64,000 bases of DNA, taken from sequence record PZ386955.1; one strand, given 5' to 3'. Both the position numbers and the translations under genes were made by a program. Positions 3,699-55,489 of this stretch are shown piece after piece; within the stretch, counting starts at the first letter, position 1; each line of letters begins with the position of its first letter. This DNA is from a phage. The notes under the pieces were generated by a model. The model was given only the letters and a program-made list of their open reading frames with translations, ran no database searches and was not told the origin of the DNA.

Positions 3699-3699
3699 T

Positions 3700-4176
3700 T
3701 CAACCTCTCTTAATTTGTTTAACAAGCATAGGAACAAAATCTCGTTTTAAAATTTGTTCAATAATATGATCAGGTAGCTGTTGGAAATTATAATTAAAAG
3801 CTACTGTCTCACCTTTAGGTGTTTCTACCCGCACATATAACATGTTACGAAGTTTATCCACTTGTGCTGTATATTCTAAACCATGTAATTGATGCATTGC
3901 AAACATCAAATCATCAGTTTCAGTTTGGAATCTATCATTTGCTTGCATTAAAGACAAGGTAAAAGGTAGATTTTCCCTAAGAGCCACCTTCTTAGGAACT
4001 AGTGAAGGAAAATACTCACCAATAACTTCCTGTGTAAGCTGGATACACTCTTTTTCAAGTTGGTTTTGTTCCTTAAGTTCACAAACACTTTTTTGTAAAG
4101 TGTTAACCTCTTTTTGCAAAGCTGCTAGTTGAGCACTTAACTTTCTTTTTTGATTACGACCAAAACGTTTAGACAT
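3700..4176 (-). CDS. hypothetical protein
   Basis: 158 aa ORF, coiled-coil-like N-terminus. Confidence 0.55.
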   Translation of the reverse strand: MSKRFGRNQKRKLSAQLAALQKEVNTLQKSVCELKEQNQLEKECIQLTQEVIGEYFPSLVPKKVALRENLPFTLSLMQANDRFQTETDDLMFAMHQLHGLEYTAQVDKLRNMLYVRVETPKGETVAFNYNFQQLPDHIIEQILKRDFVPMLVKQIKRG

Positions 4177-11580: not shown

Positions 11581-13191
11581 ATGAAATACACGATTTATGG
11601 TGATATTGTAAGTGTAAATAAAGATATGGGCGTGGAATCTAACTATCTTCCACCTGGATTCTATACTGTTAGTCGTGATCCCCTTGGCAATTATTTTTTA
11701 AGCCGTGGTAATCTAACAGGTGTACCGGATGTTCTGTATGGTGAAACAGAAAAACGAGCAAATCACGTTATCCGTACATTCCATCGCCGGAGTGCACAAG
11801 GTAAAAATACAGGCTTGCTTCTGACAGGAACTAAGGGTAGTGGTAAAACTATGTTAGCCAAACTCATTAGTCGTGATCTTGTAGAAGAAGGTATTCCAAC
11901 TATTATGGTTACTCAAGCCTACAGTGATGCTAATTTCATTGAACTTATTAGCAAGATCACCGACAAAGCAGTGATTATTTTTGACGAGTTTGATAAAGTA
12001 TATGAGAAGAAACAAGATCAAGAAGCACTTCTCACTTTGTTAGATGGTACTGGCAGTGGTAATAAACTGTTTATTCTAACTAAAAACAGTGGCTTTATCT
12101 CTGAATTCTTTCTAAATCGTCCTAGTCGTGTGTTTTATAATTTTAATTATGATAAAATCTCACTAGAAACTATGATTGACTATTTAGATAAAAACCTGGA
12201 TAACAAAGCACACTTTGATAATTTCCAAAGACTTTGGGATGTAAGTTTAGAGTTGTCCTTTGATGTGATCCAAGGTATAGTAGAAGAACTTAATTTCTAC
12301 CCTGATTTATCCTTTAAAGAATGCATCTCTATGATGGGCGTTTCTTTGGGTGGTGGTAATAAATGGGATACTACAAGTATTAACAATTTTAAACGTGGTA
12401 GCGGTTGTCCACAATGTAAGAGGGAGAGACAAACAATGTCCGACGATCAACATATTGCAGATTTCTTTTCTACAGGGGAATTTAAGGAAGGCACTATCTT
12501 CACCAATACAGGGAAACGTAACAAGCGTGATGCAGTATGGATGGTTGAGTGTCCTGTTTGCTCCCATGATGAATATGTTCAAGCAGGTGTTTGTGATGGT
12601 AAATTTTACTCTGCAGGACATAACCTTAAACAAGGGTATATTCCGTGTCGTTGTGGGAACTATCAGTATACAGAAGACCAGATCACCTATAGGGTAAAAA
12701 AGGAAGTAGAAGGGAAAGGGTATGTCTGGGTAGATTGGATTACCAAACCCTCTTCTATAGGTAAGTTTAAATATCTTTGTCTTGTGCATGGTGAGCAGAT
12801 AGGGAGTGCTCGTAATTTATTAAGCCTCGGTCAAGGTTGTCCACAGTGTGCTGGTCATAATCAACAGCAATTATATATTAATATTGTTAAAGATAATGAT
12901 ATTATAGTTGCTCTTAAGTTTGGTATATCTAAAGATAGCGATAGACGATTAAACGGTCAAAATAGCCGTAATCTGTTTTTTATGGAGCGTATTTGTTTAT
13001 ATGATTTTAGCACAGTGAAACAATGTAGGGCTGCTGAAAGAGCTATAAAGAAAAAATTAAAAACTGGTATTTTAACGGCAAGAGAGTTGAAAGATGGTTA
13101 TACAGAAACAGTAAGTGTTTCTGATTTGGAAAATCTTCAAAAAATTATTACACAATATGGTGGCAAATTAGTATACAGTAAGGAGATGTAA
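11581..13191 (+). CDS. AAA-type P-loop ATPase fused to Zn-ribbon repeats and a GIY-YIG-like (T5orf172-like) C-terminal domain
   Basis: Walker A GTKGSGKT, Walker B IIFDEFD; three Cys motifs (GCPQC, CPVC..C, GCPQC); C-terminus YINIVKD..KFGIS..RRL..GYTE resembles GIY-YIG family (tentative). Confidence 0.6.
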   Translation: MKYTIYGDIVSVNKDMGVESNYLPPGFYTVSRDPLGNYFLSRGNLTGVPDVLYGETEKRANHVIRTFHRRSAQGKNTGLLLTGTKGSGKTMLAKLISRDLVEEGIPTIMVTQAYSDANFIELISKITDKAVIIFDEFDKVYEKKQDQEALLTLLDGTGSGNKLFILTKNSGFISEFFLNRPSRVFYNFNYDKISLETMIDYLDKNLDNKAHFDNFQRLWDVSLELSFDVIQGIVEELNFYPDLSFKECISMMGVSLGGGNKWDTTSINNFKRGSGCPQCKRERQTMSDDQHIADFFSTGEFKEGTIFTNTGKRNKRDAVWMVECPVCSHDEYVQAGVCDGKFYSAGHNLKQGYIPCRCGNYQYTEDQITYRVKKEVEGKGYVWVDWITKPSSIGKFKYLCLVHGEQIGSARNLLSLGQGCPQCAGHNQQQLYINIVKDNDIIVALKFGISKDSDRRLNGQNSRNLFFMERICLYDFSTVKQCRAAERAIKKKLKTGILTARELKDGYTETVSVSDLENLQKIITQYGGKLVYSKEM

Positions 13192-17407: not shown

Positions 17408-17773
17408 ATGGCTAAAAATATCAATGTTTCTGCTTATGCTACCCTGGCTAACACTGCTAAAATTGAACTATCCAGCATTGAAGCGGTACATATTAGCGCC
17501 CGTCGCTGGTTTCAAAAGTCTTATGGTAACACTTATTTCTCTTTGATGGTTGACGTTGAGATCGGCGGTAAACTGATTGAAGTCGTTAACGTTCCGTTTC
17601 ACTATGGCTACGGGGATCATTTTGATACCGTCGCCCTGGAAGAATTTAGCAAGGTTATCAACCTGGAAGGTAAAGACTTTTCAAATTATGCTTACCTTTC
17701 CCGTTTTTGCCGTGATAATGGGATCGCTGTATACAGTCATGCAAGCGATGTTAAACGTAAAAAAGATTTATAA
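17408..17773 (+). CDS. hypothetical protein
   Basis: 121 aa ORF. Confidence 0.6.
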   Translation: MAKNINVSAYATLANTAKIELSSIEAVHISARRWFQKSYGNTYFSLMVDVEIGGKLIEVVNVPFHYGYGDHFDTVALEEFSKVINLEGKDFSNYAYLSRFCRDNGIAVYSHASDVKRKKDL

Positions 17774-17779
17774 AAAGCA

Positions 17780-17838
17780 TTGACAGCACGAATAAAAAGC
17801 ATATAATACTTATATCGAGAGCGGGAATAGTTCCCGCC
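17780..17838 (+). promoter_or_regulatory. PeSL-type promoter + stem-loop
   Basis: TTGACA-N16-TATAAT then AGCGGGAATAGTTCCCGCC hairpin. Confidence 0.65.
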
Positions 17839-20579: not shown

Positions 20580-20882
20580 ATGAACGGCATAGCTAAAACG
20601 TTTTTTCTTTTTTCTGGTGTAAATGATCCATCAATAAAAGTCGATAGTGTAAAAGAAAACAATACTATCACCGCTAAATTGTTTCAAGATGAAACAAATA
20701 ACGTGCTAATCATTAATCTTAAAGAAATAACGAAAGGTTATTATACTATTGCTTACCATGCGATTTATCATGCTGGTACTAGTGAGGAAGTGCAAACAAG
20801 CAACAACGAAAGCGCGGCGCTACCTGGTGATCTGGTACTGGGCGTTATCAGTTTAATTGTCAATGATTTTTTTAAGGAGTAA
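20580..20882 (+). CDS. hypothetical protein
   Basis: 100 aa, RBS AAGGAGAA. Confidence 0.55.
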   Translation: MNGIAKTFFLFSGVNDPSIKVDSVKENNTITAKLFQDETNNVLIINLKEITKGYYTIAYHAIYHAGTSEEVQTSNNESAALPGDLVLGVISLIVNDFFKE

Positions 20883-21140
20883 AACCATGCCCTATTTACA
20901 TTTATTTTTCGGTATCTTATTGACGGGATCTTTTTTCTTCTGTATGCTTGTTTCTATTGTAAACCACGTTTTAAGACATTAAGGAAACAGCATGAAAATT
21001 ATTCCCGTACAATATAGCGTAATAAATCCAGCATACGAGGAAGGAAGGAAAACAAGCATGGCTTTATGTTGTATTGCTACTATAGCCATGTTGTTATACA
21101 TTGTGTTTTAATAGGTTTTATAGTTGTACGCTTTAAAGGC

Positions 21141-21169
21141 TTGACAATTTTTTGTTATGCTTTAAACTA
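21141..21169 (+). promoter_or_regulatory. sigma70-like promoter
   Basis: TTGACA-N17-TAAACT upstream of 21212. Confidence 0.4.
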
Positions 21170-21535: not shown

Positions 21536-21598
21536 TTGACAGCACACCTAACAGATAGTATATTGTATCTCATAGAGCGGGGAAATGGTTTCCCCGCC
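21536..21598 (+). promoter_or_regulatory. PeSL-type promoter + stem-loop
   Basis: TTGACA ... TAGTAT then GCGGGGAAATGGTTTCCCCGCC. Confidence 0.65.
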
Positions 21599-21617
21599 TT
21601 AACAGAAGAGATAAGAT

Positions 21618-21902
21618 ATGAAGATCACAAAAGCACTTTCCAACTATGCAGCACGTCGCGGATTATGTTTAACCGTTGAAAATTTAGGGAAAGAAGATTT
21701 TTTGTGCTTTTGGGAGCTTGAGAATGATAATGAGTGGATCTTCTCTTATTCTATCTGCGAAGATCAAAACGGTTGTTTATTAACCTGGCGCGGTAATATC
21801 TATTTACCGGAAGAAATCAAGGAAGAATTACCAGGCACGATCATGACTGAGAAACAGCTTAAGGAAGTGATTAATTTTGTAGGGCAAAACATTAAAAAAT
21901 AA
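21618..21902 (+). CDS. hypothetical protein
   Basis: 94 aa ORF after PeSL. Confidence 0.6.
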   Translation: MKITKALSNYAARRGLCLTVENLGKEDFLCFWELENDNEWIFSYSICEDQNGCLLTWRGNIYLPEEIKEELPGTIMTEKQLKEVINFVGQNIKK

Positions 21903-21903
21903 T

Positions 21904-21963
21904 TTGACACCAGGCAAACAACGTAGTAAAGTTTATCACATAGGGCGGGAAATGGTTTCCCGC
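21904..21963 (+). promoter_or_regulatory. PeSL-type promoter + stem-loop
   Basis: TTGACA-N16-TAAAGT then GGGCGGGAAATGGTTTCCCGC. Confidence 0.65.
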
Positions 21964-23631: not shown

Positions 23632-24021
23632 ATGCGCAACCTGGTTTCTGTTTCTAACGTTGAAAAATTCCAATCCTTGCAGGGTATCGTTAACAACGTA
23701 GCGCCTTTTTTAGTCAATGGCTTGATTGCAAAGATGAAAAATAAACATCATGCGGCATGGTCTGCTTACTGCTTTGATAATGATGAAAAAGCGGCTGAAA
23801 TGATGTTAAATATGCTGTTAGACAGTGTAGAATCATCTTTACCGGAAAACATCGCAGAAGAGATCACCTATCGTTATAATATGGCGATCACTTACCAGGA
23901 AGTGGCGCAGTTTAACATGATGGATGAAGATGACCAACAGGATCAGGAAATGTTTTGGGAGTATGCAGATCGTCAATCGGCTTTTGATGAAAAGTTAGCG
24001 ATGTATTATAACGAATATTAA
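23632..24021 (+). CDS. hypothetical acidic protein
   Basis: Track ORF 23596..24021 starts inside hairpin; trimmed to ATG (MRNLVS) after RBS AAAAGG. Confidence 0.55.
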   Translation: MRNLVSVSNVEKFQSLQGIVNNVAPFLVNGLIAKMKNKHHAAWSAYCFDNDEKAAEMMLNMLLDSVESSLPENIAEEITYRYNMAITYQEVAQFNMMDEDDQQDQEMFWEYADRQSAFDEKLAMYYNEY

Positions 24022-24033
24022 TACACGGCAAAA

Positions 24034-24062
24034 GAAAGGGGCGCACTAAGCGCCCTTTTTTG
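24034..24062 (+). terminator. rho-independent terminator
   Basis: GGGGCGC-ACTAA-GCGCCCC followed by TTTTTT. Confidence 0.65.
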
Positions 24063-24408
24063 TATTCTTTTTTCACAATGGAAGCGACACGTAAAGAATA
24101 GGCGTAAAGGTGGCGTAAAACCATCTAAAACCGACTGTAACCGCTTAAACAAGGTAGGAATGATTAATCACCTTACCAGGATGAAAAAGCTGTTATAAAG
24201 CTATCTAGAGCGTTTAAAGCACATAGGAAATAATTTGCTTTTTATCTTGCCTTTTGTCCTACTTTTGATTATTATTATGGAACGGGCGGCACCTGGGAGC
24301 AGGGGAAGATAATCACCGGAAGATCCCGCTATATATTGATAGCTAATATCTATTAAACAACAAAACATCAAAGGAATAAACTATCAAATCTTTACAATCT
24401 TATCTATT

Positions 24409-24732: not shown

Positions 24733-24760
24733 TTGACACCGGATCACGCTTACATTATTA
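24733..24760 (+). promoter_or_regulatory. sigma70-like promoter
   Basis: TTGACA ... CATTAT upstream of 24808. Confidence 0.45.
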
Positions 24761-24807
24761 TTTATCACGTAGGGCAAATCATTTTAAACGGTAAACGAGG
24801 AATCACC

Positions 24808-25191
24808 ATGAGCAATATCATCAACCTGGCGGCTACTGTAAACGGTAAAGATTTTAACGGCGCTGTAGATCGTGATCCTATGTGGTGCTTATCAGTGTTT
24901 AAAGGCGATCTGGTTGAAGTTAGAACAACCGAAGGTTATAGCGACGATTATAAATGCGAGATTCATTTACACAACTGGTACACGGGTAAAACTTATGCGC
25001 TGAATCATGCGTTTATCGGGAAAATTGAATATCGCGAGATGATCGACGAGGAAACCGGGCAAGATTTTAGCGAAAACGTTTATATTCGTTCCGAGACATT
25101 AGCCGAACGTTTGATCGAGAAGATGAAAGCAAAAAATAAAATTAATTTAGCTCATTGGATTGATATAACAAACGATCCAGCTTATCAATAA
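24808..25191 (+). CDS. hypothetical protein
   Basis: Track ORF 24733..25191 overlaps promoter; trimmed to ATG (MSNIIN) after RBS ACGAGGAA. Confidence 0.55.
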   Translation: MSNIINLAATVNGKDFNGAVDRDPMWCLSVFKGDLVEVRTTEGYSDDYKCEIHLHNWYTGKTYALNHAFIGKIEYREMIDEETGQDFSENVYIRSETLAERLIEKMKAKNKINLAHWIDITNDPAYQ

Positions 25192-25205
25192 ATAACATTT
25201 CACAC

Positions 25206-25232
25206 CAGGGCGCACAAAGCGCCCTTTCTTTT
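25206..25232 (+). terminator. rho-independent terminator
   Basis: GGGCGC-ACAAA-GCGCCC followed by TTTCTTTT. Confidence 0.6.
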
Positions 25233-25490
25233 ACCTCAATAAAGATGATAGCTTTTACCTATCAAAAACGTTCACCGAAAAAAGTGAATAGATCGCGGTA
25301 TCGAGCTAATCAAGGAGCAGATGAACAACCATACCATGAAGATCATAAGGCGCTTACAACGCGTTTTAGACCGCTTGTTTTTAATTTCTCCATGTAACTA
25401 TCTGGCAAAAACAGCCTTTTTCTTGTCTTTCCTCTTAAATAATAATCATTCTCATTTGTAGCTGATTATTTATGCAATAAACTGAATAAT

Positions 25491-25514
25491 GCAATAATGA
25501 TAATCATTCTTAAC
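25491..25514. promoter_or_regulatory. Fur-box-like motif, copy 2
   Basis: AATAATGATAATCATTCTT, 16 of 19 matches to GATAATGATAATCATTATC; partial copy at 25441-25458. Confidence 0.4.
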
Positions 25515-25885
25515 TTAAGACCATCTAACCTATAAAATAATAAGCTATCTAACTAAATTAAAGCTAATTATCTCACCTTTATTTATAACTTACTGTTACT
25601 ATCTCATTGATAACCTTATATTAAACAACAATAACTAATATAAATCATTACCAAGCTAAAGATAAGCTATCTAACCTTTAAAACTATAACTATAATCTAT
25701 CGAATTGTTGCACAAAGTAACTATTAAATTGTTAGTAACATTACTAAATAATTAATATCCTATCTATTTATGATCTAATCTTTACCTTCCTATCTATTAC
25801 CTAAATAATCATTTCATACAATAACTATAACAAGAAATATAATTCGCAAGCGTATCATTAGCAGCCTATGCCGGACACATAGGCG

Positions 25886-26031
25886 GCTAATAATAACGCA
25901 ACTACACACCCCACATAATAACCATCACCGATAGTTATTATTTGTGCTTATGTAGCTTGCAACAATTGCAAGCGCAACAATATACATGGTATATTGTATC
26001 CCTTACATTGTTGCGGTGCGTTATTATTAGC
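25886..26031. repeat. nested inverted repeats / palindromes in non-coding region
   Basis: Perfect 15-nt arms GCTAATAATAACGCA inverted ~110 bp apart; internal palindromes GCTTGCAA-CAA-TTGCAAGC and ACAATATAC-ATG-GTATATTGT. Confidence 0.6.
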
Positions 26032-26360
26032 TAATGTTTAGAACATTGGCTATAATATAAGCTATCCAATAATAATAAGCTATACAATAATAAACATAGT
26101 GAATAATGACCCCCGATGATCATAATGCGCCACCTTCCAGGGGGCGCTATGTGAACACAAAGAAACCTTTCTTGTCAAGAAAAATATTGCCACTATTGCG
26201 CAAAATTATTTATATCTGAATAGATGATTTTTCATACTATTGCCCCCAATACTATCCCTATTTGTTGCCCTAACTATTGTCATTTGTTGAGCCTACTTTC
26301 TTAAAAGCGCAATAAATCAGAATTATCTTGATTTTTAGGGCGTTTTATAGTATAGAAAAT

Positions 26361-26384
26361 ATGCAAATGATAATCATTATCAGC
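26361..26384. promoter_or_regulatory. Fur-box-like motif, copy 3
   Basis: GCAAATGATAATCATTATC, 17 of 19 matches to Fur consensus. Confidence 0.4.
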
Positions 26385-26548
26385 TATCTTCCACGGGTGG
26401 CACTATTTCACGCAGGATCATTTCATTTGGCAAGGTGTATATAGATGTTTAGACTTGCCAAGCCATTGATTTACTTAGAATTTATCTGTTTTGTTGTGAG
26501 TAGTACCTTTCTTGCTCAGAAAATAATCAAAAGTCTTATAAGTCATTG

Positions 26549-26577
26549 AATGATAATGCAAATGATAATTATTCTCA
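26549..26577. promoter_or_regulatory. Fur-box-like motif, copy 4 (tandem half-sites)
   Basis: GATAATGCAAATGATAATTATTCTC. Confidence 0.35.
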
Positions 26578-26950
26578 TTGATATTTGAGGGGGACGGTCG
26601 GCAGAAATCGGGGGGCGCTGAAAATCGCGTTAAGCACCTCTCGCAAGCGAGCAGTATTTTGCGGCAAGTTATTGATATTATTGACTTTACGCTTATGAAA
26701 AGGGGGTGTGTCGAAATAAATCGGGTATACCGGAAAAATTTTGTGGCATAGATATTTATTTGTCTATATTATGTACAAAGGGGTGTGTTAAAAATAATAG
26801 GTATATATAGAATAATTGATAGGGAATACCTATACTAATTCCTATACTAAATCCTTCATTAATGATGTTTCTATGGTGCTGTTCTTGTAATAGATGAAAA
26901 GACGCTGTATGATGTGTGGCATGAAACGTAAATTTATAAAGGAGTCTGAT

Positions 26951-27310
26951 ATGTGTGTTCCTATTAGCAGTCCACTGCTGTTAGAATTTTACAAAGCATG
27001 GATGGAAGATCATTCCTCAATGCATCGTGAGAATGTTGGTTTGTGTATTTGCCTTATGGATTATCTGGCAACCACTATGTCAAAGAAAAAACCTACGCAA
27101 GAAGATATAGAACATTTCAAGATGGTTCGCAGTAAAACGCTAGAAGAGATGAAATTGCAATTCACGTGTGCTGGGCTATCATCATTCCTGCCCTTTAATG
27201 ATGACCTTCTGTGTTATGAAGATGAAGGTAAGAAACATTCTTGCCATACTAACCCAGGGAGATTGCAGTGGGTGAAAGATCGTATTGCCGATTCATGTAA
27301 GGGTGTGTAG
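26951..27310 (+). CDS. hypothetical protein, paralog family A member 1
   Basis: Trimmed to ATG after RBS AAGGAG; shares LxFY, GLCxCL, FTCAGL..LPFN, CHTN..RLQWVKDRI with three paralogs. Confidence 0.6.
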   Translation: MCVPISSPLLLEFYKAWMEDHSSMHRENVGLCICLMDYLATTMSKKKPTQEDIEHFKMVRSKTLEEMKLQFTCAGLSSFLPFNDDLLCYEDEGKKHSCHTNPGRLQWVKDRIADSCKGV

Positions 27311-27311
27311 A

Positions 27312-27467
27312 ATGTGGGAATTGGTTGGAATAGTTTGGTTAATGATAAAAGCAGGTTTTGTCGGTTTCGGACTTCTTATAATTTTGTGTATGTTCCTTAG
27401 TGCAATACAGGCATTCTTTTATCTGCTAGGTAGAATACTTAAGTTAGGAGGTGATCATGAAAAGTAA
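27312..27467 (+). CDS. small membrane protein (51 aa)
   Basis: Trimmed from track ORF 27285..27467 to ATG (MWELVG); hydrophobic. Confidence 0.4.
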   Translation: MWELVGIVWLMIKAGFVGFGLLIILCMFLSAIQAFFYLLGRILKLGGDHEK

Positions 27468-27825
27468 TATTCCGTTGAGTAGTGCAGCTTTAATACGATT
27501 CTATAAAGCATGGATTGCCAACCATCCGGCAATGAATCGCACAACGAGTGGCTTGTGTGGTTGTCTGGTAGATTATGTAGATGATTTTGTTGGTGAGGTA
27601 ACTAGAGAAGAAGATAAAAGATGGCGTGATCGTTTGTTGGATAGTTTGAAATACGAAATGAGGAAACAATTTACATGTGCAGGACTGGACTACAATCTTC
27701 CGTTCAATGCAGATTGCATGGATTACCTTTCAGAGTGTATAGACTTGGCGTGTCATACCAACACGTTACGTCTTCAATGGGTGAAAGACAGAATCGAAGA
27801 TGCAAATAATGCTTGCATTGAATAG
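27457..27825 (+). CDS. hypothetical protein, paralog family A member 2
   Basis: RBS AGGAGGTG; motifs FYKAW, GLCGCL, FTCAGL..LPFN, CHTN..RLQWVKDRI. Confidence 0.6.
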   Translation: MKSNIPLSSAALIRFYKAWIANHPAMNRTTSGLCGCLVDYVDDFVGEVTREEDKRWRDRLLDSLKYEMRKQFTCAGLDYNLPFNADCMDYLSECIDLACHTNTLRLQWVKDRIEDANNACIE

Positions 27826-27895
27826 AAATGTCTGTACACTGTGTTCCATAAGATATGCAATATCGCGCATAACAAACTACTAATGAGAGGTGTAA

Positions 27896-28354
27896 ATGAA
27901 AACTGTATCTTTGTATCTTGCTAACACGGAGCGTGTACATAATCTTGTAAAAGAATGCGGTGTGAGTGTTCAATTTAACATAGGAAAGCCTTCCGTGGTG
28001 ACAGGCAGTGAGATGTGTGTTATTGATTTCCTCAATGAATATTTTCGTGGAAAACCTATTGCTCGTCACTTCATTCAAGAAATGCGAGATGTACTACAGG
28101 CTTATGAATTCTACCCAGAAATTTGTGAACGCTATGAAACTATTCTTAGTTCTGTAGAAGATCCAGATACTAGTGAAACAGGTGTTTCCCACTTACTGTG
28201 GATGTTGAATGAAATTCAGGATGGGTGTAATGGTATGTCTGAAACCAAACGCCATCGTTGGCTAGGCTATATTCAGGGTGTTATGGTTATGAAAAACCTT
28301 ATTACCGTTGATGATGAACGTAATGCTACACGCCCCGTCTTTAATGGAGCATAA
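27896..28354 (+). CDS. hypothetical protein
   Basis: 152 aa, RBS GAGAGG. Confidence 0.55.
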   Translation: MKTVSLYLANTERVHNLVKECGVSVQFNIGKPSVVTGSEMCVIDFLNEYFRGKPIARHFIQEMRDVLQAYEFYPEICERYETILSSVEDPDTSETGVSHLLWMLNEIQDGCNGMSETKRHRWLGYIQGVMVMKNLITVDDERNATRPVFNGA

Positions 28355-28355
28355 C

Positions 28356-28571
28356 ATGAAAAGCATTCAGGTGTGTATTGAAAATAATTGTGGTTATCTG
28401 GGGTTGACACATGTTGCTTTCCCTCTTATGTTAGATGCTGATATCGCTTACAGCGGAGTTGCTTATGTGTCATTCAAGACAATGAGCCAAGTACCTGGCT
28501 GGAAGTGGGAAGTAGTTGATGTTGTTGAAGGAGAAGATTATGTTTTCCTTCCACACGAATATACTGTTTAA
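28356..28571 (+). CDS. hypothetical protein
   Basis: Trimmed from 28308 to ATG (MKSIQV) after RBS GGAGC. Confidence 0.5.
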   Translation: MKSIQVCIENNCGYLGLTHVAFPLMLDADIAYSGVAYVSFKTMSQVPGWKWEVVDVVEGEDYVFLPHEYTV

Positions 28572-28586
28572 AGAGAGGAAAAGAAG

Positions 28587-28763
28587 ATGGATAAACAAAC
28601 TACTGTGTACTTAGTAACAAAGAATACCCCAGGCTGGAGCCAATGCAGCACTGTACCTTACAAGATCTGTGCAACATTAGAACTAGCACAACGCGCAGAA
28701 GCAGAAGTGGATGCCATGCAATACAGCTATGGTGAAATCATTCCTTTTACTCTTGAACAATAA
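28587..28763 (+). CDS. hypothetical small protein (58 aa)
   Basis: Not in track; RBS AGAGGAAAAGAAG. Confidence 0.45.
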   Translation: MDKQTTVYLVTKNTPGWSQCSTVPYKICATLELAQRAEAEVDAMQYSYGEIIPFTLEQ

Positions 28764-28774
28764 GGATTTGTGTA

Positions 28775-29227
28775 ATGTTTGAAATTGGTAAAGTGTATCG
28801 TTTTAAAAACCCATCTTATATCCGTAAGTTTGCTAACATGTCTGAGTGCAATAGCAGGATTGCTTCTTTTTTAGGTGATTCCTATTTTCGTGTATTAGAT
28901 GTGGATGATTGGTATGGTGTCACTGCTTTGCAATCCTTAGCAGGAGAACAAGAAATTATCGCTCAAAATGAAGGAGACTTTCTTCAGTGTTACACGTTGC
29001 TTGCAAAAAGTGAGTTTGAGTATTTTGTAGAAGTCTTAGAGGAAGCACCAAAAAGTAAACACGAAGAGAAATACCTGCTTGTAGTGGATGGAGTTCCGAT
29101 CATGGAAACCATCTCCCGTGAGGAAGTTGAAAAAGAGGCGAAACGTTACAAGCTGGATCGTACACAGAGTGTAGTTGAAGTCTATTCTCTTGTTGGTGTT
29201 GCAGATATTAGTGTGAACATCGTATAA
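28775..29227 (+). CDS. hypothetical protein
   Basis: 150 aa ORF. Confidence 0.55.
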   Translation: MFEIGKVYRFKNPSYIRKFANMSECNSRIASFLGDSYFRVLDVDDWYGVTALQSLAGEQEIIAQNEGDFLQCYTLLAKSEFEYFVEVLEEAPKSKHEEKYLLVVDGVPIMETISREEVEKEAKRYKLDRTQSVVEVYSLVGVADISVNIV

Positions 29228-29230
29228 TAT

Positions 29231-29443
29231 ATGTGTAATGACAGATACATTCTTCGTGTATCTGATAAGTCTCCTATGTTTGACTGGCGGGGCTGGTGGC
29301 TACTAGCTCCGATGCAAGGTCTGACAGACGTGGAAAAGGAGGCTTATGTGTATACAAAAGAAGAGATAGAAGATAGCCTTTATTTGACAGATAACATTAA
29401 GAATGGTATCTTTGAGTGTAAATTGAAAGGAGAGGAAGAATGA
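29231..29443 (+). CDS. hypothetical protein
   Basis: 70 aa ORF. Confidence 0.5.
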   Translation: MCNDRYILRVSDKSPMFDWRGWWLLAPMQGLTDVEKEAYVYTKEEIEDSLYLTDNIKNGIFECKLKGEEE

Positions 29444-29739
29444 CTATTACAGAAAAACTGCGCTGTATTGCAAAGCAAAGTGGAGAAGGTTTATGGTTTC
29501 CTATTGAGGAAATTATTCAGGACTGTTATGATCAGGCTAAGACTGGCAAATACTCCAAAGCATTTAAACCATCTGTTTTCGGTTTGGATGACTATCCAAA
29601 AAATGAACAAGCAAAGAAACGACAAGTTGATTTGATTGATCTTGCTATGGAAGCACTACGAGAGCATGGGCTTAGTAAGGTGTATGCTTTAAACACCAAA
29701 GAGGGCTTTGTAGATTCAGTGATCGTAGACTGGTATTAA
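29440..29739 (+). CDS. hypothetical protein
   Basis: 99 aa, ATGA overlap, RBS GGAGAGGAAG. Confidence 0.55.
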   Translation: MTITEKLRCIAKQSGEGLWFPIEEIIQDCYDQAKTGKYSKAFKPSVFGLDDYPKNEQAKKRQVDLIDLAMEALREHGLSKVYALNTKEGFVDSVIVDWY

Positions 29740-29748
29740 GGAGAAGTC

Positions 29749-30117
29749 ATGCAAGAGAATAATAAAGTGTGTAACATGAAAAGCAGCCCCTATTTGCTAC
29801 AATTTTATGAATGGTGGTTAGAACAAGAAGATACAAACTTTAGCAAAAAGCACTATGGTCTTTGCACGTGTCTTGTAGACTTCTTATACAATATTGCTTG
29901 GATAAAAGATGTTGAGAATCTAGCAAACCTTCAGTCCTCTGTACGAGAGGAAATGAAGGAACAATTTAAGAAAGCGGGTTTGAACCATTTACATCCGTTT
30001 AATACGGATTTCTCGCACTACTTTACGGAAACAGAGCTAGGCATTGCACACCTTAACAAAGAACGTGTACAATGGGTGATTGATCGTATTCGTGATATGG
30101 AGGAATATAATGGTTAA
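29749..30117 (+). CDS. hypothetical protein, paralog family A member 3
   Basis: RBS AGGAGAAG; motifs LQFYEWW, GLCTCL, AGLNHLHPFN, RVQWVIDRI. Confidence 0.6.
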   Translation: MQENNKVCNMKSSPYLLQFYEWWLEQEDTNFSKKHYGLCTCLVDFLYNIAWIKDVENLANLQSSVREEMKEQFKKAGLNHLHPFNTDFSHYFTETELGIAHLNKERVQWVIDRIRDMEEYNG

Positions 30118-30319
30118 GTTTAAAACTTTCTGTGCAATCTCTGTTTGTCTTATTCTTGCATACGTGTTATTCTCTGGTATCATTCGTTTAGGTGAGTATA
30201 TGGCAAGAGAAGCTCGTGAAAGTGAAGCTAAAAAAGAACAGTGCATCGTGTTAAAGCACCAAAGGGATGCTGAAAAATTTCTTGAACAGGATTGTGGGCG
30301 CTATGTGAATTATAATTAG
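30110..30319 (+). CDS. membrane-anchored protein, paralog family B member 1
   Basis: Trimmed to ATG after RBS GGAGGAA; N-terminal TM segment; C-terminus KEQCIVLKHQRDAEKFLEQDC resembles 35108..35332. Confidence 0.5.
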   Translation: MVKFKTFCAISVCLILAYVLFSGIIRLGEYMAREARESEAKKEQCIVLKHQRDAEKFLEQDCGRYVNYN

Positions 30320-30328
30320 GAGGGAAGT

Positions 30329-30577
30329 ATGTTAGATATTTTTACCTTTGATCGTGTTGGTACACCGATTACCGAAGAAGAACGTACCAAAATTGAACAA
30401 GAATTGGATGCTTTACGTGCGTCTCTTACAGACACAGTCTCACTACAACGTGAAGCTGCACATCTCACAGAGATCACTGGTATTCAGTGGAGCACGGAGT
30501 GGGTTGTAATTACAATTGAAGCGGATATTTGGGGACATGAAGAGACGCTACGTACCGGAGTAGTAACGGTTTGGTGA
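30329..30577 (+). CDS. hypothetical protein
   Basis: 82 aa, RBS TAGGAGGGAAG. Confidence 0.55.
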   Translation: MLDIFTFDRVGTPITEEERTKIEQELDALRASLTDTVSLQREAAHLTEITGIQWSTEWVVITIEADIWGHEETLRTGVVTVW

Positions 30578-30623
30578 TAGATGTTATTCTTTTGTGTTTC
30601 TTGATATATAAATAGGAGGGTTT

Positions 30624-30848
30624 ATGGTAAAACGTCTGGAATGGGATGCGTGTACTGCTCACGCTTGTCACTGTGATATTGTTGAAGATCCTAATGGAGA
30701 GATGGTGTATTATGAGGATTACGAAGCATTGCACAATGCTGTGATTGCTTTACTGGATGATATTAGCTCACGCTATCCAGGACAACAATTCACGTGTCCA
30801 CATATCCAACTATTAGCCGAACTTACGGAGTATCCAAGTGTTCCATAA
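30624..30848 (+). CDS. hypothetical protein
   Basis: 74 aa, RBS AATAGGAGGG. Confidence 0.55.
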   Translation: MVKRLEWDACTAHACHCDIVEDPNGEMVYYEDYEALHNAVIALLDDISSRYPGQQFTCPHIQLLAELTEYPSVP

Positions 30849-30849
30849 T

Positions 30850-31017
30850 ATGGGTGTCCCTGAACAACTGCTCTTTATTGTAGGATTAGTAGGCTTATTG
30901 GCGGCTGGCGCTAAAGCCGCTTCTCACACGCATCACATAATGTTAAGATTTCTATTCCTACTCCCTTCTATCCTCGTACTATTAGTCATACTGATCGATA
31001 ACATTTTTCACAATTAA
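30850..31017 (+). CDS. small membrane protein (55 aa)
   Basis: Not in track; hydrophobic; fills gap between track ORFs. Confidence 0.35.
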   Translation: MGVPEQLLFIVGLVGLLAAGAKAASHTHHIMLRFLFLLPSILVLLVILIDNIFHN

Positions 31018-31026
31018 GGAGAGGTT

Positions 31027-31611
31027 ATGAGTAAAATTATACCAAGCAGTTATGAATTATTACAGTTTTATGTATATTATATAGACTGGGTTAGTAGATT
31101 GAATGTTAAAGACAATGCGATGTTTAGTAAAAACATCTGTTTAACAGAAAGTATCTTCCGTTACTGGCACACAGGTAGAAAGTGTACACACAGTGAAGCT
31201 ATGCGCATTGTAGGAGAATATCTGGAGCAATTGCAAAAAGCAGAACTTCCTGTCCTTCACCCATTCAACGAATCTAAAGAAGAATTAGAACAAGAATGTA
31301 GGGAAGGTAAGTGCCATTTGAATGAAAAACGTATCGAATGGGTGAGGCAACGTTTAGCCGATGCAGGGAATCCTCCTAGTGACTCTGACTATACGTGGTA
31401 TGATGTAGAGGGTTTAGTTCAAGGTTTTGAGGCTTGTGCTATAGGTAATACCAACTTTGCCAAAGTTTTATGCGAGGTTTATGATCTGGCAGATAAAATC
31501 CGAAATCACGGATGGAAACAAGAGCATAAAGAATCATATGAACGCCTTGACAAGATTTTCAAACAGATCTATTCTAACCACAAAGAGATGTTCCAAATGG
31601 AGGATGTGTAA
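31027..31611 (+). CDS. hypothetical protein, paralog family A member 4 (extended C-terminus)
   Basis: RBS AAGGAGAGG; motifs LLQFY, LPVLHPFN, CHLNEKRIEWVRQRL. Confidence 0.55.
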   Translation: MSKIIPSSYELLQFYVYYIDWVSRLNVKDNAMFSKNICLTESIFRYWHTGRKCTHSEAMRIVGEYLEQLQKAELPVLHPFNESKEELEQECREGKCHLNEKRIEWVRQRLADAGNPPSDSDYTWYDVEGLVQGFEACAIGNTNFAKVLCEVYDLADKIRNHGWKQEHKESYERLDKIFKQIYSNHKEMFQMEDV

Positions 31612-32297
31612 TGAAAGAGATTATGTTTGAAGGGCATCGTTACGAAGTTCCAGACAATGCAAATTTCATGGCTCGTGATATCACTGGAGATGTGTTCTGG
31701 TTTGAAGATGAACCTGTGTTTTCTTCGAACAAACACTGGTTTTCACAACAATCTTCCTCGGAAAATATGACTTTTGGCTACGTAGAGCCTAAAGTGCGCT
31801 GCAAAGCAGCTTCTTCTTTGGTAAAAATTTCCCAAGATGATCAAGAAAATACTCCAGATGTTGTTAGTGCACTACTGAAGTACATTGCAGAACTTGAGAA
31901 GAAAATTAAAGAAGCAGAAACTAAGGTGAAAGCACGATCAGCCATCATTGAAGCTATGTCTGAACGTATCTTAGAGCTAGAAGATTTGTGTGGAGAGGCT
32001 TATCAAGTGGTTGGTGCGCTGGCTTGTGAAGCACAAATGTTTGAAACTTCAGAACAAGTTTCACATATGTTAGATAATTTGAGTGAATGTAAAATGATTC
32101 ATGATGATGTATTGCCATTTTGTTGCAATGTTAACAAAACAGAGCAAACACAAGATTCAGAAACAGTTTATGTTCCGCTAATGTGTGTTCCAGATCATCT
32201 AAAAGGTGTATTCTCTTGTAAATGGTCGCTGTTGAGCGTTACTAATTGTGGTGAAAACTATTCTGCCAACATTGAATTGCTAAAACACGTTAAATAA
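31611..32297 (+). CDS. hypothetical protein
   Basis: 228 aa, start overlaps upstream stop. Confidence 0.55.
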   Translation: MKEIMFEGHRYEVPDNANFMARDITGDVFWFEDEPVFSSNKHWFSQQSSSENMTFGYVEPKVRCKAASSLVKISQDDQENTPDVVSALLKYIAELEKKIKEAETKVKARSAIIEAMSERILELEDLCGEAYQVVGALACEAQMFETSEQVSHMLDNLSECKMIHDDVLPFCCNVNKTEQTQDSETVYVPLMCVPDHLKGVFSCKWSLLSVTNCGENYSANIELLKHVK

Positions 32298-32307
32298 GGA
32301 GAGTAAT

Positions 32308-32712
32308 ATGTGGTCTGTTAAAATCAAATATAATGCGCAGTATTATGGTGGAAAGCCTTACGAAGTTGTTATTTGTGACTGTATCTCTAAAGAAGTTGCA
32401 CAGCTTTGTGGCGCTGGTGTTAGTGAAGCTATGAACAAAATGCATAACTCTACTGTGCGTTACTTGGATCAAGATATTCCAGAAGATGTAAATGACTATG
32501 CTTACGAAGTTATTTACAGTGAAGGTAAGAAGCTCTCTATTGAAGATGCACTTAAAGCACTACCTGCTATGTGCAGCCCAACACCAGAAGCAGTTAAAGA
32601 GATTTTACCAGAATCCAACCCCGATGAATATGCTGCTATGGTTGCTTCGGACATGTGGAATCTCTGTCGAGAAACTATGATTAAAAATCTGGTGGAAATG
32701 GCGCATGAGTAA
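32308..32712 (+). CDS. hypothetical protein
   Basis: 134 aa, RBS AAGGAGAG. Confidence 0.55.
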   Translation: MWSVKIKYNAQYYGGKPYEVVICDCISKEVAQLCGAGVSEAMNKMHNSTVRYLDQDIPEDVNDYAYEVIYSEGKKLSIEDALKALPAMCSPTPEAVKEILPESNPDEYAAMVASDMWNLCRETMIKNLVEMAHE

Positions 32713-35107: not shown

Positions 35108-35332
35108 ATGAAGTCTGTAAACAAGTTGCAACAATTTTTGTTATCAACAGCAATCTTTTTGCTTTTGTTAATTGGTATTCTGTATGGTGCATCTAACTTA
35201 TACAATCTACATAATGATGTAGAACAGAATAAAGAGAAGTGCATCATTCTAAAACACAAGAAACAAGCAGAAGATTTCTTAAAGAATAAGTGTTACAACT
35301 ACATTGATTATGAGGAGACAAACAATGATTAA
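35108..35332 (+). CDS. membrane-anchored protein, paralog family B member 2
   Basis: RBS AAGGAGGG; TM segment; C-terminus KEKCIILKHKKQAEDFLKNKC. Confidence 0.55.
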   Translation: MKSVNKLQQFLLSTAIFLLLLIGILYGASNLYNLHNDVEQNKEKCIILKHKKQAEDFLKNKCYNYIDYEETNND

Positions 35333-39252: not shown

Positions 39253-39258
39253 CACATA

Positions 39259-39280
39259 AACCCGCTTCGGCGGGTTTTCT
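39259..39280 (+). terminator. rho-independent terminator
   Basis: AAACCCGC-TTCG-GCGGGTTT followed by TCTTGT. Confidence 0.6.
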
Positions 39281-39625: not shown

Positions 39626-39655
39626 TAAAGCCCCTAGAAGCGATTCTAGGGGCTT
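39626..39655. terminator. bidirectional rho-independent terminator at convergence of plus and minus blocks
   Basis: AAAGCCCCTAGAAGCGATTCTAGGGGCTTTT with A/T runs on both sides. Confidence 0.6.
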
Positions 39656-39723
39656 TTGTTTGCATTAGATAGGGAAACGTATTACTAAAATAAAAAGTGC
39701 GTTAGAATGCGTTACAGGAGGTT

Positions 39724-51964: not shown

Positions 51965-52231
51965 TTACTCCGCAATCTGAGCCATGAATTCACGTAGTTC
52001 GGAAAAACCTCCTACGTGGGTTAGATGTTCACCATCTTCCACAAAAATTTGAGGAAAGGTACGTGGCAGAACACCTGTTTTCTCTAAAACCAGATTCTGA
52101 ATCTGATCTAAAGAATAGTCTTCATCTAAGGTAAGATATTTAAAATCCTGTTCACGCTGTTCCAGTAGAATCTTAGCGTTAGTGCAGAAAGGACAATTTG
52201 GTTTACCGTAGATAATAAAATTCATTTTCAC
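51965..52231 (-). CDS. glutaredoxin (NrdC/NrdH-like)
   Basis: CPFC active site in YGKPNCPFCTNAK, ~88 aa. Confidence 0.8.
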   Translation of the reverse strand: MKMNFIIYGKPNCPFCTNAKILLEQREQDFKYLTLDEDYSLDQIQNLVLEKTGVLPRTFPQIFVEDGEHLTHVGGFSELREFMAQIAE

Positions 52232-53058
52232 TCCTTGTTTAAAAGTATAGTTAAAGTTTTTACAATACCGCTATCAACACTTCGCGGATTTAAAGTAGGA
52301 TCTGTTTTTAAATAAGATGTTGCTGGTCTGACTGCTTTGGAATTATAGGTTGAAGCAGATACAGGATTAACTGTAACAGACAAATCTATAACAAGAAATA
52401 TCTTTCGTGCAAAATCGTACCAAGAAATATAATCTGCACCTGCATAGTGTACAATTTTACTATTTACACCATCTTTTACAAGTTTAAAAATTGTTTCTGC
52501 AAGATCAGGTGCATAAGTAGGACACGACAAATGATCACATACTACATTAAATTCTTTTTGACCACCATTGTAGCGTTCCAACATAGTTTTCAAAAAGTTA
52601 TGTCCAAATTCACTATAAACAGAAGCTGTTCTGATAATAAGTGCTGTAGGACAAACTGCTTGTACTAAAGTTTCACCTAATTGTTTACTGTAACCGTAGG
52701 TGTTCAAGGGGTTTGTTTTACTCTCTTCTGTGCCAGCAACATGTCCATCAAAAACATAGTCTGTTGAAATATGTACAAACTGTATCAGTAAATCATTACA
52801 TGCTTTGGCAATGTTTGTTGCACCGTATGCATTAACATTTATACAGGTGTTAACATCTTCTTCAGCTTTATCTACTGCCGTGTAAGCCGCACAATTCACA
52901 ACAACATCAGGCACATGCTGTACAAGACTATTCATAACATCTTTAAAGTTGGTAATGTCTACATCACTTGCTTCAATCAAAATAACATCTTCGGGCGCAA
53001 CTTTTGCCAAAGACTGTCCTAATTGACCTTTTGAACCAAAGACTAAAAATTTTGTCAA
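52228..53058 (-). CDS. rmlD: dTDP-4-dehydrorhamnose reductase
   Basis: N-terminal Rossmann LVFGSKGQLGQSL, RmlD-like length and pathway context. Confidence 0.75.
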   Translation of the reverse strand: MTKFLVFGSKGQLGQSLAKVAPEDVILIEASDVDITNFKDVMNSLVQHVPDVVVNCAAYTAVDKAEEDVNTCINVNAYGATNIAKACNDLLIQFVHISTDYVFDGHVAGTEESKTNPLNTYGYSKQLGETLVQAVCPTALIIRTASVYSEFGHNFLKTMLERYNGGQKEFNVVCDHLSCPTYAPDLAETIFKLVKDGVNSKIVHYAGADYISWYDFARKIFLVIDLSVTVNPVSASTYNSKAVRPATSYLKTDPTLNPRSVDSGIVKTLTILLNKE

Positions 53059-54499: not shown

Positions 54500-55489
54500 T
54501 TAAACTTTATTTTCCCACCACTCTTTGTTATCTACATACCAATCAATGGTTGAATAAAGTTTTTCTTCAAATGTGCCTTTAGCTTTCCACCCTAATTCCT
54601 TTTCAATCTTATAAGGATTCACTTCATATCTTAGATCATGCCCAGGCCTATCTGTAACCATCTCAATGAGGCTACAAGCATCTGTTTCAGATGGATATAC
54701 CGCATCCATATAATCACAAATCATATAGATTACATCAATATTAGTTCTAGGGTTTCTGCTCCCAATATTATATGTCTCTCCAGATTTGCCTTTAGTTACT
54801 ACTAGGTGTAATGCTTCTGCGTGATCGTCAACGTATAGCCAGTCTCTTACTTGAAGACCATTACCATAAACAGGGATTGGTTTATTCATTAAGATATTTG
54901 TTATCGTCTTAGGTATTAGTTTTTCTGGATGATGATATGCTCCAAAATTATTTGAACAATTTGTTATAACTGTCGGAATACCATAAGTACGATGCCACGC
55001 TCTTACCAAATGATCGCTTGCAGCTTTAGATGCAGCATATGGACTACTTGGTTTATAAGGATTCTGTTCTGTAAACGGATAATCCCCTTCTTCCAGATCA
55101 CCATACACTTCATCTGTTGAAATATGATGGAACATTTTAAGATTTGATTTATCTCCCATTAAACGAACAGCTTCTAGAAGATTAAATGTCCCAACAATAT
55201 TTGAATTTATAAAAACACTCGGTGATGCTATTGAATTATCTACGTGACTTTCTGCTGCAAGATGCATTATATAATCTGGATTAACATCTGCCACAATCTT
55301 AGCAGTTAACTGAGCATTTGTCAAGTCAACACGACAAAACTTTACATTAGGTGTTTCTGATAAATTTCTAGGGTCTGAAGCGTAACCCCATTTATCTATA
55401 ACGTAAATATCATTCTTAGTGTTTTTAGCCAGGAAACGAACTACCGCACTTCCAATAAAGCCTAAACCACCTGTTACTAAGTATTTCAT
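54500..55489 (-). CDS. rmlB: dTDP-glucose 4,6-dehydratase
   Basis: [12 protein letters not shown] Rossmann, [15 protein letters not shown] catalytic YxxxK signature. Confidence 0.9.

Follow-up and report, generated by a model that had tools for sequence, protein, structure and literature searches.

Four genes, here called A to D, in a 64,000-nucleotide stretch of phage DNA (record PZ386955.1; this whole stretch is referred to as the window) encode divergent copies of one small protein domain that recurs in phages of alpha-, beta- and gammaproteobacteria. The paralogy of the four genes, the breadth of the family, its genomic position, its gain and loss, the purifying selection acting on it and a confident predicted fold are established here. 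The explanation favoured for these observations, with a probability of about 0.5, is that A to D are early, individually dispensable effectors directed at the host, which would serve host takeover or counter-defence through a conserved functional site.

The relationship between the four open reading frames (ORFs; Table 1) was examined by alignment, by shuffled controls and by profile searches. A MAFFT alignment of the four proteins is colinear and contains 23 invariant columns, with identities among the paralogs of 25-46%. Smith-Waterman scores exceeded those of shuffled sequences with z values of 45.5 (A-B), 32.3 (A-C) and 27.2 (B-C), and of 12.3 (A-D), 12.2 (B-D) and 16.0 (C-D) for the pairs that include D; none of 500 shuffles reached the observed score. 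An all-against-all BLASTP comparison of the window ORFs linked A to D at E-values of 2e-30 to 5e-6, and a hidden Markov model (HMM) built from the four retrieved A to D and nothing else when run against every six-frame ORF of the window (E 1e-51 to 1e-55, compared with 0.086 for the following hit). The four-member paralogous family proposed in an earlier, sequence-only reading of this DNA is therefore borne out, both by the shuffled controls and by the multiple alignment and HMM that it had named as checks. The ordered motifs on which that proposal was based are exact in A and B, but degenerate in C (FKKAGL, HPFN and AHLN..RVQWVIDRI) and in D (NICL, LQKAEL, HPFN and CHLNEKRIEWVRQRL). The start codons chosen at that stage have good Shine-Dalgarno sequences ahead of all four genes, and the C-terminal extension ascribed to the fourth member is present, D having approximately 77 additional residues. 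On these comparisons, A to D are anciently diverged paralogs of one small helical protein.

Near-identical 21-nt direct repeats at 27266-27286, 27775-27795 and 30070-30090 coincide with the QWV(K/I)DRI codons of A, B and C, respectively, and are potential substrates for recombination between the paralogs.

Table 1. Positions of the family members and associated features. Coordinates are those of the window, except for the last row, which are those of phiWec186 (L009). RBS, ribosome-binding site.
Feature	Coordinates	Strand	Remarks
Member A, 119 aa	26951-27310	+	ORF; RBS AGGAG at 26941; in variable cassette
Member B, 122 aa	27457-27825	+	ORF; RBS GGAGG at 27447; protein modelled by AlphaFold
Member C, 122 aa	29749-30117	+	ORF; RBS AAGGAG; ortholog of phi92 gp006
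Member D	31027-31611	+	ORF; RBS AAGGAG; ortholog of phi92 gp010
D, N-terminal family domain (residues 1 to ~117)	31027-31377	+	
D, C-terminal helical extension (~77 aa)	31378-31611	+	putative fused companion module
Indel cassette (A, 51-aa membrane ORF, most of B)	26844-27774	+	without counterpart in phi92
Direct terminal repeat, single collapsed copy	~26290-26632	.	matches to both phi92 ends
Members in phiWec186 (L009)	11914-13103 (three overlapping tandem), 17519-17812, 20845-21168, 21598-21927, 23715-24098		

The position of the family was established by comparison with the genome of phi92. The nearest DNA matches to the region are Escherichia coli myoviruses of the phi92 group (Eryne, Nernie, Paula, EmilieFrey and others) at 95-98% identity, and the taxonomy line of phi92 reads Stephanstirmvirinae; Justusliebigvirus. 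The phage had been called T4-like, which is incorrect, as its best DNA matches belong to this group and not to the Tevenvirinae. The phi92 genome is annotated with direct terminal repeats (DTR) of 343 bp, the left copy (DTR-L) occupying phi92 1-343. In blastn alignments, phi92 1-556, which includes DTR-L, corresponds to window 26290-26843 at 97.7% identity, and the right end of phi92 (146727-148612, including the right copy, DTR-R) corresponds to window 24759-26632. Both ends of phi92 are thus matched within 24759-26843, and the window therefore crosses the physical end of the genome; its sequence is a circularised or permuted assembly. Member A is the first credible gene past the left terminal repeat, with the family located at the leading (left) end. 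The assignment of the genes to an early block was upheld: A to D lie in an early-type run of small same-strand genes directly after the left terminal repeat.

Several other features of this region were observed. A short repeat, ATGCAAATGATAAT..., occurs at 26361 and 26556, within or just past the terminal repeat, and three copies of (A/G)AGGGG(G)TGTGT... are found at 26587, 26700 and 26777. A 61-nt block (26766-26826) that is 90% conserved with phage phiWec186 may be an early promoter or a packaging signal. Four records without annotation (MG065645, MG065689, MG065639 and MG065656; ‘Campylobacter phage A145/A110a/A150/C3’) match the region at 96.7% identity over 96% of 7 kb; their Campylobacter host label looks doubtful.

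All four proteins were matched to existing catalogue families. The PHROG family phrog_2510 was matched by A (2.6e-21), B (4.1e-24), C (1.6e-25) and D (3.1e-17), phrog_27059 by D (1.6e-137), and phrog_6418, more weakly, by all four members. The domain of approximately 105 residues shared by A to D therefore belongs to a PHROG 2510/27059/6418 superfamily, each family of which is labelled ‘unknown function’. Scans of A to D against Pfam and NCBIfam gave only chance-level matches and none at the curated cut-off, a Pfam scan of 100 diverse family members found no recurring family at E<=1, and PADLOC, which holds defence models only, likewise matched A to D only at chance level. Sequence searches of the PDB with two profiles returned no match. 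The literature on Phapecoctavirus, Stephanstirmvirinae, phi92, Justusliebigvirus and phrog_2510 yielded nothing about the family, and the phi92-type phage group is not covered by two gene-essentiality screens.

The family is large. A word-index protein search produced 31 clusters of relatives, and a full HMMER scan with a 22-sequence profile against 1.84 billion representatives (clusters at 50% identity) returned 1,242 proteins at E<=1e-3, of which 491 reached E<=1e-10. Pattern-based locus scans located the domain at only one locus in genome contigs and three in viral contigs. The usual member is a single domain of 100-125 residues. Among the best 150 representatives there are 12 two-domain tandem fusions and one three-domain fusion (BcepSaruman), and about a dozen relatives carry further fused domains, none of known function and one of them DUF551. 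These fusion partners were considered and rejected as a clue to function because they are unknown PHROGs or DUF551. One apparent relative, P0046 (2,115 aa, 22 ‘hits’), was discarded as a spurious repeat translation. The named members, including the source names of ten representative clusters, are all ‘hypothetical’.

The domain is present in 181-219 GenBank phage records and in only one of 72,556 plasmids, and the family is phage-restricted. The hosts of the phages concerned (from GenBank and BFVD) include Escherichia, Salmonella, Klebsiella, Erwinia, Pectobacterium, Pseudomonas, Acinetobacter, Rhizobium, Burkholderia, Delftia and Achromobacter, and so span the three proteobacterial classes.

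The genomic context of the domain was compared between unrelated phages. It is encoded by gp07 of the N4-like phage Ea9-2, at a distance of 2.4 kb from the left end, by gp008 and gp009 of the T7-like phage RHEph03, upstream of the primase gene, and within the PL ‘ea’ region of a P22-like contig, where Ead/Ea22-like and DUF551 genes flank it. It also occurs inside mosaic proteins of 250-400 residues in a P22-like phage. In phiWec186, three tandem copies directly follow a gene-free stretch that is syntenic with the repeat region of the window. Wherever the context could be read, the gene lies in an early or accessory region. The two genes past D (31611-32712) correspond to phi92 gp011 and gp012, annotated as ‘potential Eaa-like’. 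Because Eaa-like genes follow D and the domain adjoins Ead/Ea22-like and DUF551 genes elsewhere, the early accessory regions of lytic and lambdoid phages appear to share a pool of modules.

The number of copies per genome ranges from zero to seven. Two are present in phi92, three or four in the close relatives of the window, three domains in RHEph03 and two in one metagenomic contig; phiWec186, with seven members within 12 kb, has the largest expansion found. In megablast searches, C and D were each full length in all of their 56 matching records, A was present in 35 phage records, and B was full length in 78 of 111 matched records. Several of the partial B matches, such as those in VEcB, AV126 and PHB05, consist only of a 3′ remnant of approximately 50 nt. 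Part of the family is therefore accessory: the A/B cassette is lacking from phi92 and from other relatives, whereas C and D occur in all 56 close relatives, C being core to the genus.

The comparison with phi92 indicates how the cassette varies. C and D share 95-96% identity with phi92 gp006 (2315-2683) and gp010 (3307-3891), and the blastn alignment is interrupted between phi92 556 and 566, where the cassette has no counterpart. The alignment resumes with phi92 566-641, equivalent to window 27775-27850, which covers the last 17 codons of B and the sequence downstream; this short phi92 segment is therefore a deletion remnant of B. The right boundary of the phi92 deletion falls on the 21-nt repeat of B at 27775. 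The slot after the terminal repeat thus holds A and B in the window and two other members (X and Y) followed by B in phiWec186, and is empty in phi92. B is found in Phapecoctavirus genomes at 92-99.7% DNA identity, those among its megablast matches being at 92-94%. Its protein is 97.5% identical to that of the third tandem copy of phiWec186, with a synonymous divergence (dS) of 0.07, whereas the DNA on either side is 78-90% identical.

Selection on the orthologs was estimated from pairwise ratios of nonsynonymous to synonymous divergence (dN/dS, Nei-Gojobori). For A, C, D and the majority of B pairs the ratios lay at 0.04-0.23; a single B pair, which differs by very few changes, gave 0.60. These values indicate that the orthologs are under purifying selection. 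The copies had been described as a diversifying family, to be examined by dN/dS; positive selection was not detected among the orthologs, and at the sequence level the description does not hold. The diversity of the family is better attributed to ancient paralogy, gain and loss of cassettes and exchange between genera. Variation among B-type proteins is concentrated at residues 42-62, which span the end of helix 2, a loop and the first part of helix 3, and at residues 94-101, in the loop that precedes helix 5.

The structure of B was predicted with AlphaFold2 from a 22-sequence alignment, with a mean predicted local distance difference test score (pLDDT) of 93.1 and a predicted template-modelling score (pTM) of 0.86. 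The model is all-alpha, with five helices (residues 10-20, 33-45, 51-74, 87-95 and 103-121). A fold search of this model against the PDB found no solved structural relative, and PDB searches, which should include the solved anti-defence proteins, gave no match to the family. The isoelectric points (pI) are 6.2 (A), 5.2 (B), 5.3 (C) and 5.6 (D), with a family median of 5.2, so that the proteins are mildly acidic. A DNA-mimic anti-restriction protein of the Ocr, ArdA or Arn type was considered and rejected, as a pI of approximately 4 would be expected and there was no structural match.

Conservation was counted over 190 domain instances, using B numbering and as a fraction of the domains aligned at each position. 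The conserved positions are F15 (179/184), Y16 (183/183) and W19 (174/184) in helix 1; G32 (177/187), L33 (175/187) and C34 (184/187), the last located at the N-terminus of helix 2; E67 (170/189), Q71 (174/189) and F72 (181/189) in helix 3; P82 (187/188), F83 (187/188), N84 (145/182), Y90 (158/188) and E93 (155/184); and N102 (174/187), R105 (187/187) and W108 (181/186). The polar sextet Y16-C34-E67-Q71-N102-R105 is complete in 142 of the 190 domains (75%). A, B and C carry all six residues together with P82-F83 and W108; D retains the Tyr, Glu, Gln, Pro-Phe, Asn, Arg and Trp, and the alignment of its first Cys is ambiguous (NICL in place of GLCxN/C). Judged from helical phase, the conserved polar residues map to the core-facing sides of the helices or to their margins, which would fit a semi-buried polar cluster in the predicted fold.

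A metal site was also considered. The full set C34, C36, C99 and H100 is found in A and B alone of the four paralogs, and this Cys3His pattern occurs in 20 of the 190 domains. Asn occupies position 36 in 121 of 183 domains and Cys in 36; C99 is kept in 103 of 185 and H100 in 130 of 187, the latter being otherwise often Tyr or Phe; 16 domains contain just one Cys. A zinc site common to the whole family was rejected, as C34 is the only near-invariant residue among the candidate Cys/His ligands, and the variability of the other three positions, with the single-Cys domains, makes a classical Cys-His dyad equally unlikely.

The C-terminal extension of D shows colinear homology to a separate 75-residue ORF of phiWec186 (L009:21171-21395), which adjoins a family gene and begins at its stop codon (E 3e-8 by BLASTP and 1.9e-5 by phmmer among approximately 1,900 ORFs). 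D is therefore probably a fusion of the domain with a companion, unless the arrangement in phiWec186 arose by fission. The AlphaFold2 model of full-length D has a pLDDT of 67.7, and its C-terminal part (approximately 50-60) is predicted, at low confidence, to be helical; the model is too poor to support a fold search. A word-index search with the extension gave no match.

The reading of A to D as early host-directed effectors was reached because the family occupies leading-end or early accessory positions in unrelated lineages, its copies are dispensable, and it is restricted to phages. It is further suggested by the recurrent expansion and tandem fusion of the domain, the purifying selection, and the persistence of an invariant polar constellation across three proteobacterial classes. 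We infer that the genes are expressed early and that their products have a target in the host, a functional site and an oligomeric state. The effectors would be deployed early against the host from the leading end of the genome, and would act through the semi-buried polar site formed by Y16, C34, E67, Q71, N102 and R105, centred on C34 and R105. The main differences between paralogs fall in the hairpin of helices 2 and 3 (residues 42-62) and in the loop before helix 5 (94-101), and these segments would set specificity for a partner or target. The recurrent two- and three-domain fusions suggest that the working unit could be a dimer or oligomer, and the domain may couple to a small helical companion, as in D. 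Host takeover and counter-defence would both be compatible with such a role, and neither is preferred.

To our knowledge, narrow families of protein inhibitors rarely retain six polar residues over a wide host range. Because the six are kept here over a broad host range, a catalytic or small-ligand-binding role with a reactive Cys34 is slightly favoured over that of a purely steric protein inhibitor. A more specific version of this idea is speculative: the domain might be an unrecognised all-alpha, Cys-dependent enzyme or covalent ligand trap, with target-specific paralogs acting on a conserved host molecule. Cys34, at its helix N-terminus, would then be activated by R105, E67, N102, Q71 and Y16, and proteobacterial phages would deploy the domain from the part of their DNA that enters the cell first.

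The proteins might instead serve the programme of the phage itself, as regulators or adaptors of early-to-middle transcription or of the start of replication. The presence of C and D in all 56 close relatives and the purifying selection would be expected of such proteins, and the phi92 neighbours gp005, gp026 and gp027 are labelled as putative transcription regulators. However, the family occurs in N4-like, T7-like, lambdoid, rV5-like and jumbo phages, whose transcription strategies differ, its copy number falls to zero in some genomes and rises to seven in another, and A and B were lost in phi92 without replacement. Neither a helix-turn-helix nor any other DNA-binding fold was detected in the fold and PDB searches, and the proteins are not basic (pI 5.2-6.2). 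A phage-internal role is accordingly considered unlikely.

Small ORFs with a predicted membrane segment are interspersed with the family genes (27312-27467, 30110-30319 and 30850-31017), such that one lies between A and B, one follows C and one precedes D; in the Eryne annotation, 12 of the 62 genes of the region have such a segment. It is conceivable that A to D, each of which adjoins one of these ORFs, work from the cytoplasm with the small membrane proteins to bring about superinfection exclusion or to remodel the envelope, perhaps with a Cys3His zinc site in phi92-type members such as A and B. This is quite improbable, as phiWec186, Ea9-2, SeSz-2, the P22-like contig and a further locus (L003) do not show this neighbourhood, and the zinc variant is at odds with the single-Cys domains and the prevalence of Asn at position 36.

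The patchy distribution could also reflect mobility, with the genes being selfish cassettes of a homing-endonuclease-like or addiction type that pass from one co-infecting phage to another. The indel nature of the A/B cassette would fit this, B is more similar across two genera (92-99.7%) than are its flanks (78-90%), and the 21-nt QWV(K/I)DRI repeats could support recombination. However, the Pfam scan of 100 members found no GIY-YIG, HNH or LAGLIDADG domain, the model is all-alpha over approximately 105 residues and lacks a beta-beta-alpha-metal element, C and D keep their place in all 56 genomes, and tandem fusion and insertion into mosaic lambdoid proteins are atypical of homing genes; such an origin is very improbable. 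Lastly, that the motifs are chance similarities or the ORFs not genes can be dismissed on the shuffle z values (12-45), the HMM E-values (1e-51 to 1e-55), the hundreds of homologs, the dN/dS well below 1 and the strong RBS of all four.

The family was compared with known systems. Its closest counterparts are the PHROG 2510, 6418 and 27059 families, which include phi92 gp006 and gp010 and are matched directly by the HMMs; these are catalogue entries that carry no assigned function, structure or Pfam domain. The sequences of A to D are already in GenBank as ‘hypothetical proteins’, and the function of the domain is undescribed. The present analysis newly connects the three PHROGs with one another and describes the conserved site, the occurrence in several copies per genome and the location at the genome end.

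Sets of early genes at the leading end are known from T7 (the class I genes, including 0.3/Ocr), T5 (pre-early genes), SPO1 (the host-takeover module) and N4 (early genes). These are likewise small, mostly non-essential genes placed right after a terminal repeat, and in N4-like and T7-like phages the present family is also found in the early left-end region. A to D have no sequence or fold relation to Ocr or other solved early proteins in the PDB; early timing and first entry of the left end are presumptive in phi92-like phages. The T4 proteins Alt, ModA and ModB are ADP-ribosyltransferase paralogs of alpha/beta fold that act at the start of infection; by analogy only, they resemble A to D in that several paralogs per phage share a site and diverge elsewhere. 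In contrast to them, A to D are all-alpha, lack the R-S-E motif and have no Pfam ADP-ribosyltransferase match. In the lambdoid ‘ea’ region, the domain adjoins Ead/Ea22-like and DUF551 genes and is in one case fused to DUF551; it is itself neither DUF551 nor Ead/Ea22, and those partners are also of unknown function. Unlike HNH and other homing endonucleases, the family has no nuclease fold in the B model and no Pfam nuclease match.

Other paralogs and boundaries were observed in the window. The membrane-segment ORFs at 30080-30319 and 35108-35332 have in common a conserved 30-residue stretch in their C-terminal parts, at 50% identity (...KEQCIVLKHQRDAEKFL...), and form a second paralog pair of the early block. 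Two minus-strand ORFs, 52228-53058 (276 aa) and 54500-55489 (329 aa), share 29% identity across 163 N-terminal residues (E 3e-8) and constitute a paralog pair unrelated to the A-D family. A bidirectional terminator-like hairpin with a perfect 13-bp stem (39627-39656) separates the plus-strand early block from the minus-strand block, and a second terminator-like hairpin is found at 39258-39277.

The evidence gathered so far would not surprise a phage specialist, to whom multi-copy early accessory genes are already a familiar kind. Nevertheless, the family comprises more than 1,200 clusters at 50% identity, is found only in phages, has no Pfam entry, and can be folded confidently although it has no solved structural relative. 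Its invariant polar residues resemble those of an enzyme, and it repeatedly expands, contracts and fuses in the leading-end or early accessory regions of unrelated phages. These properties make it a tractable target within the ‘dark matter’ of phage genomes, for which a natural knock-out (phi92, lacking A and B), point mutants at C34, R105 and E67, and multi-copy genomes offer a means of approach. Should the proteins prove to act in host takeover or counter-defence, this would account for some of the variability of the left end in a phage group that is represented in therapy collections.

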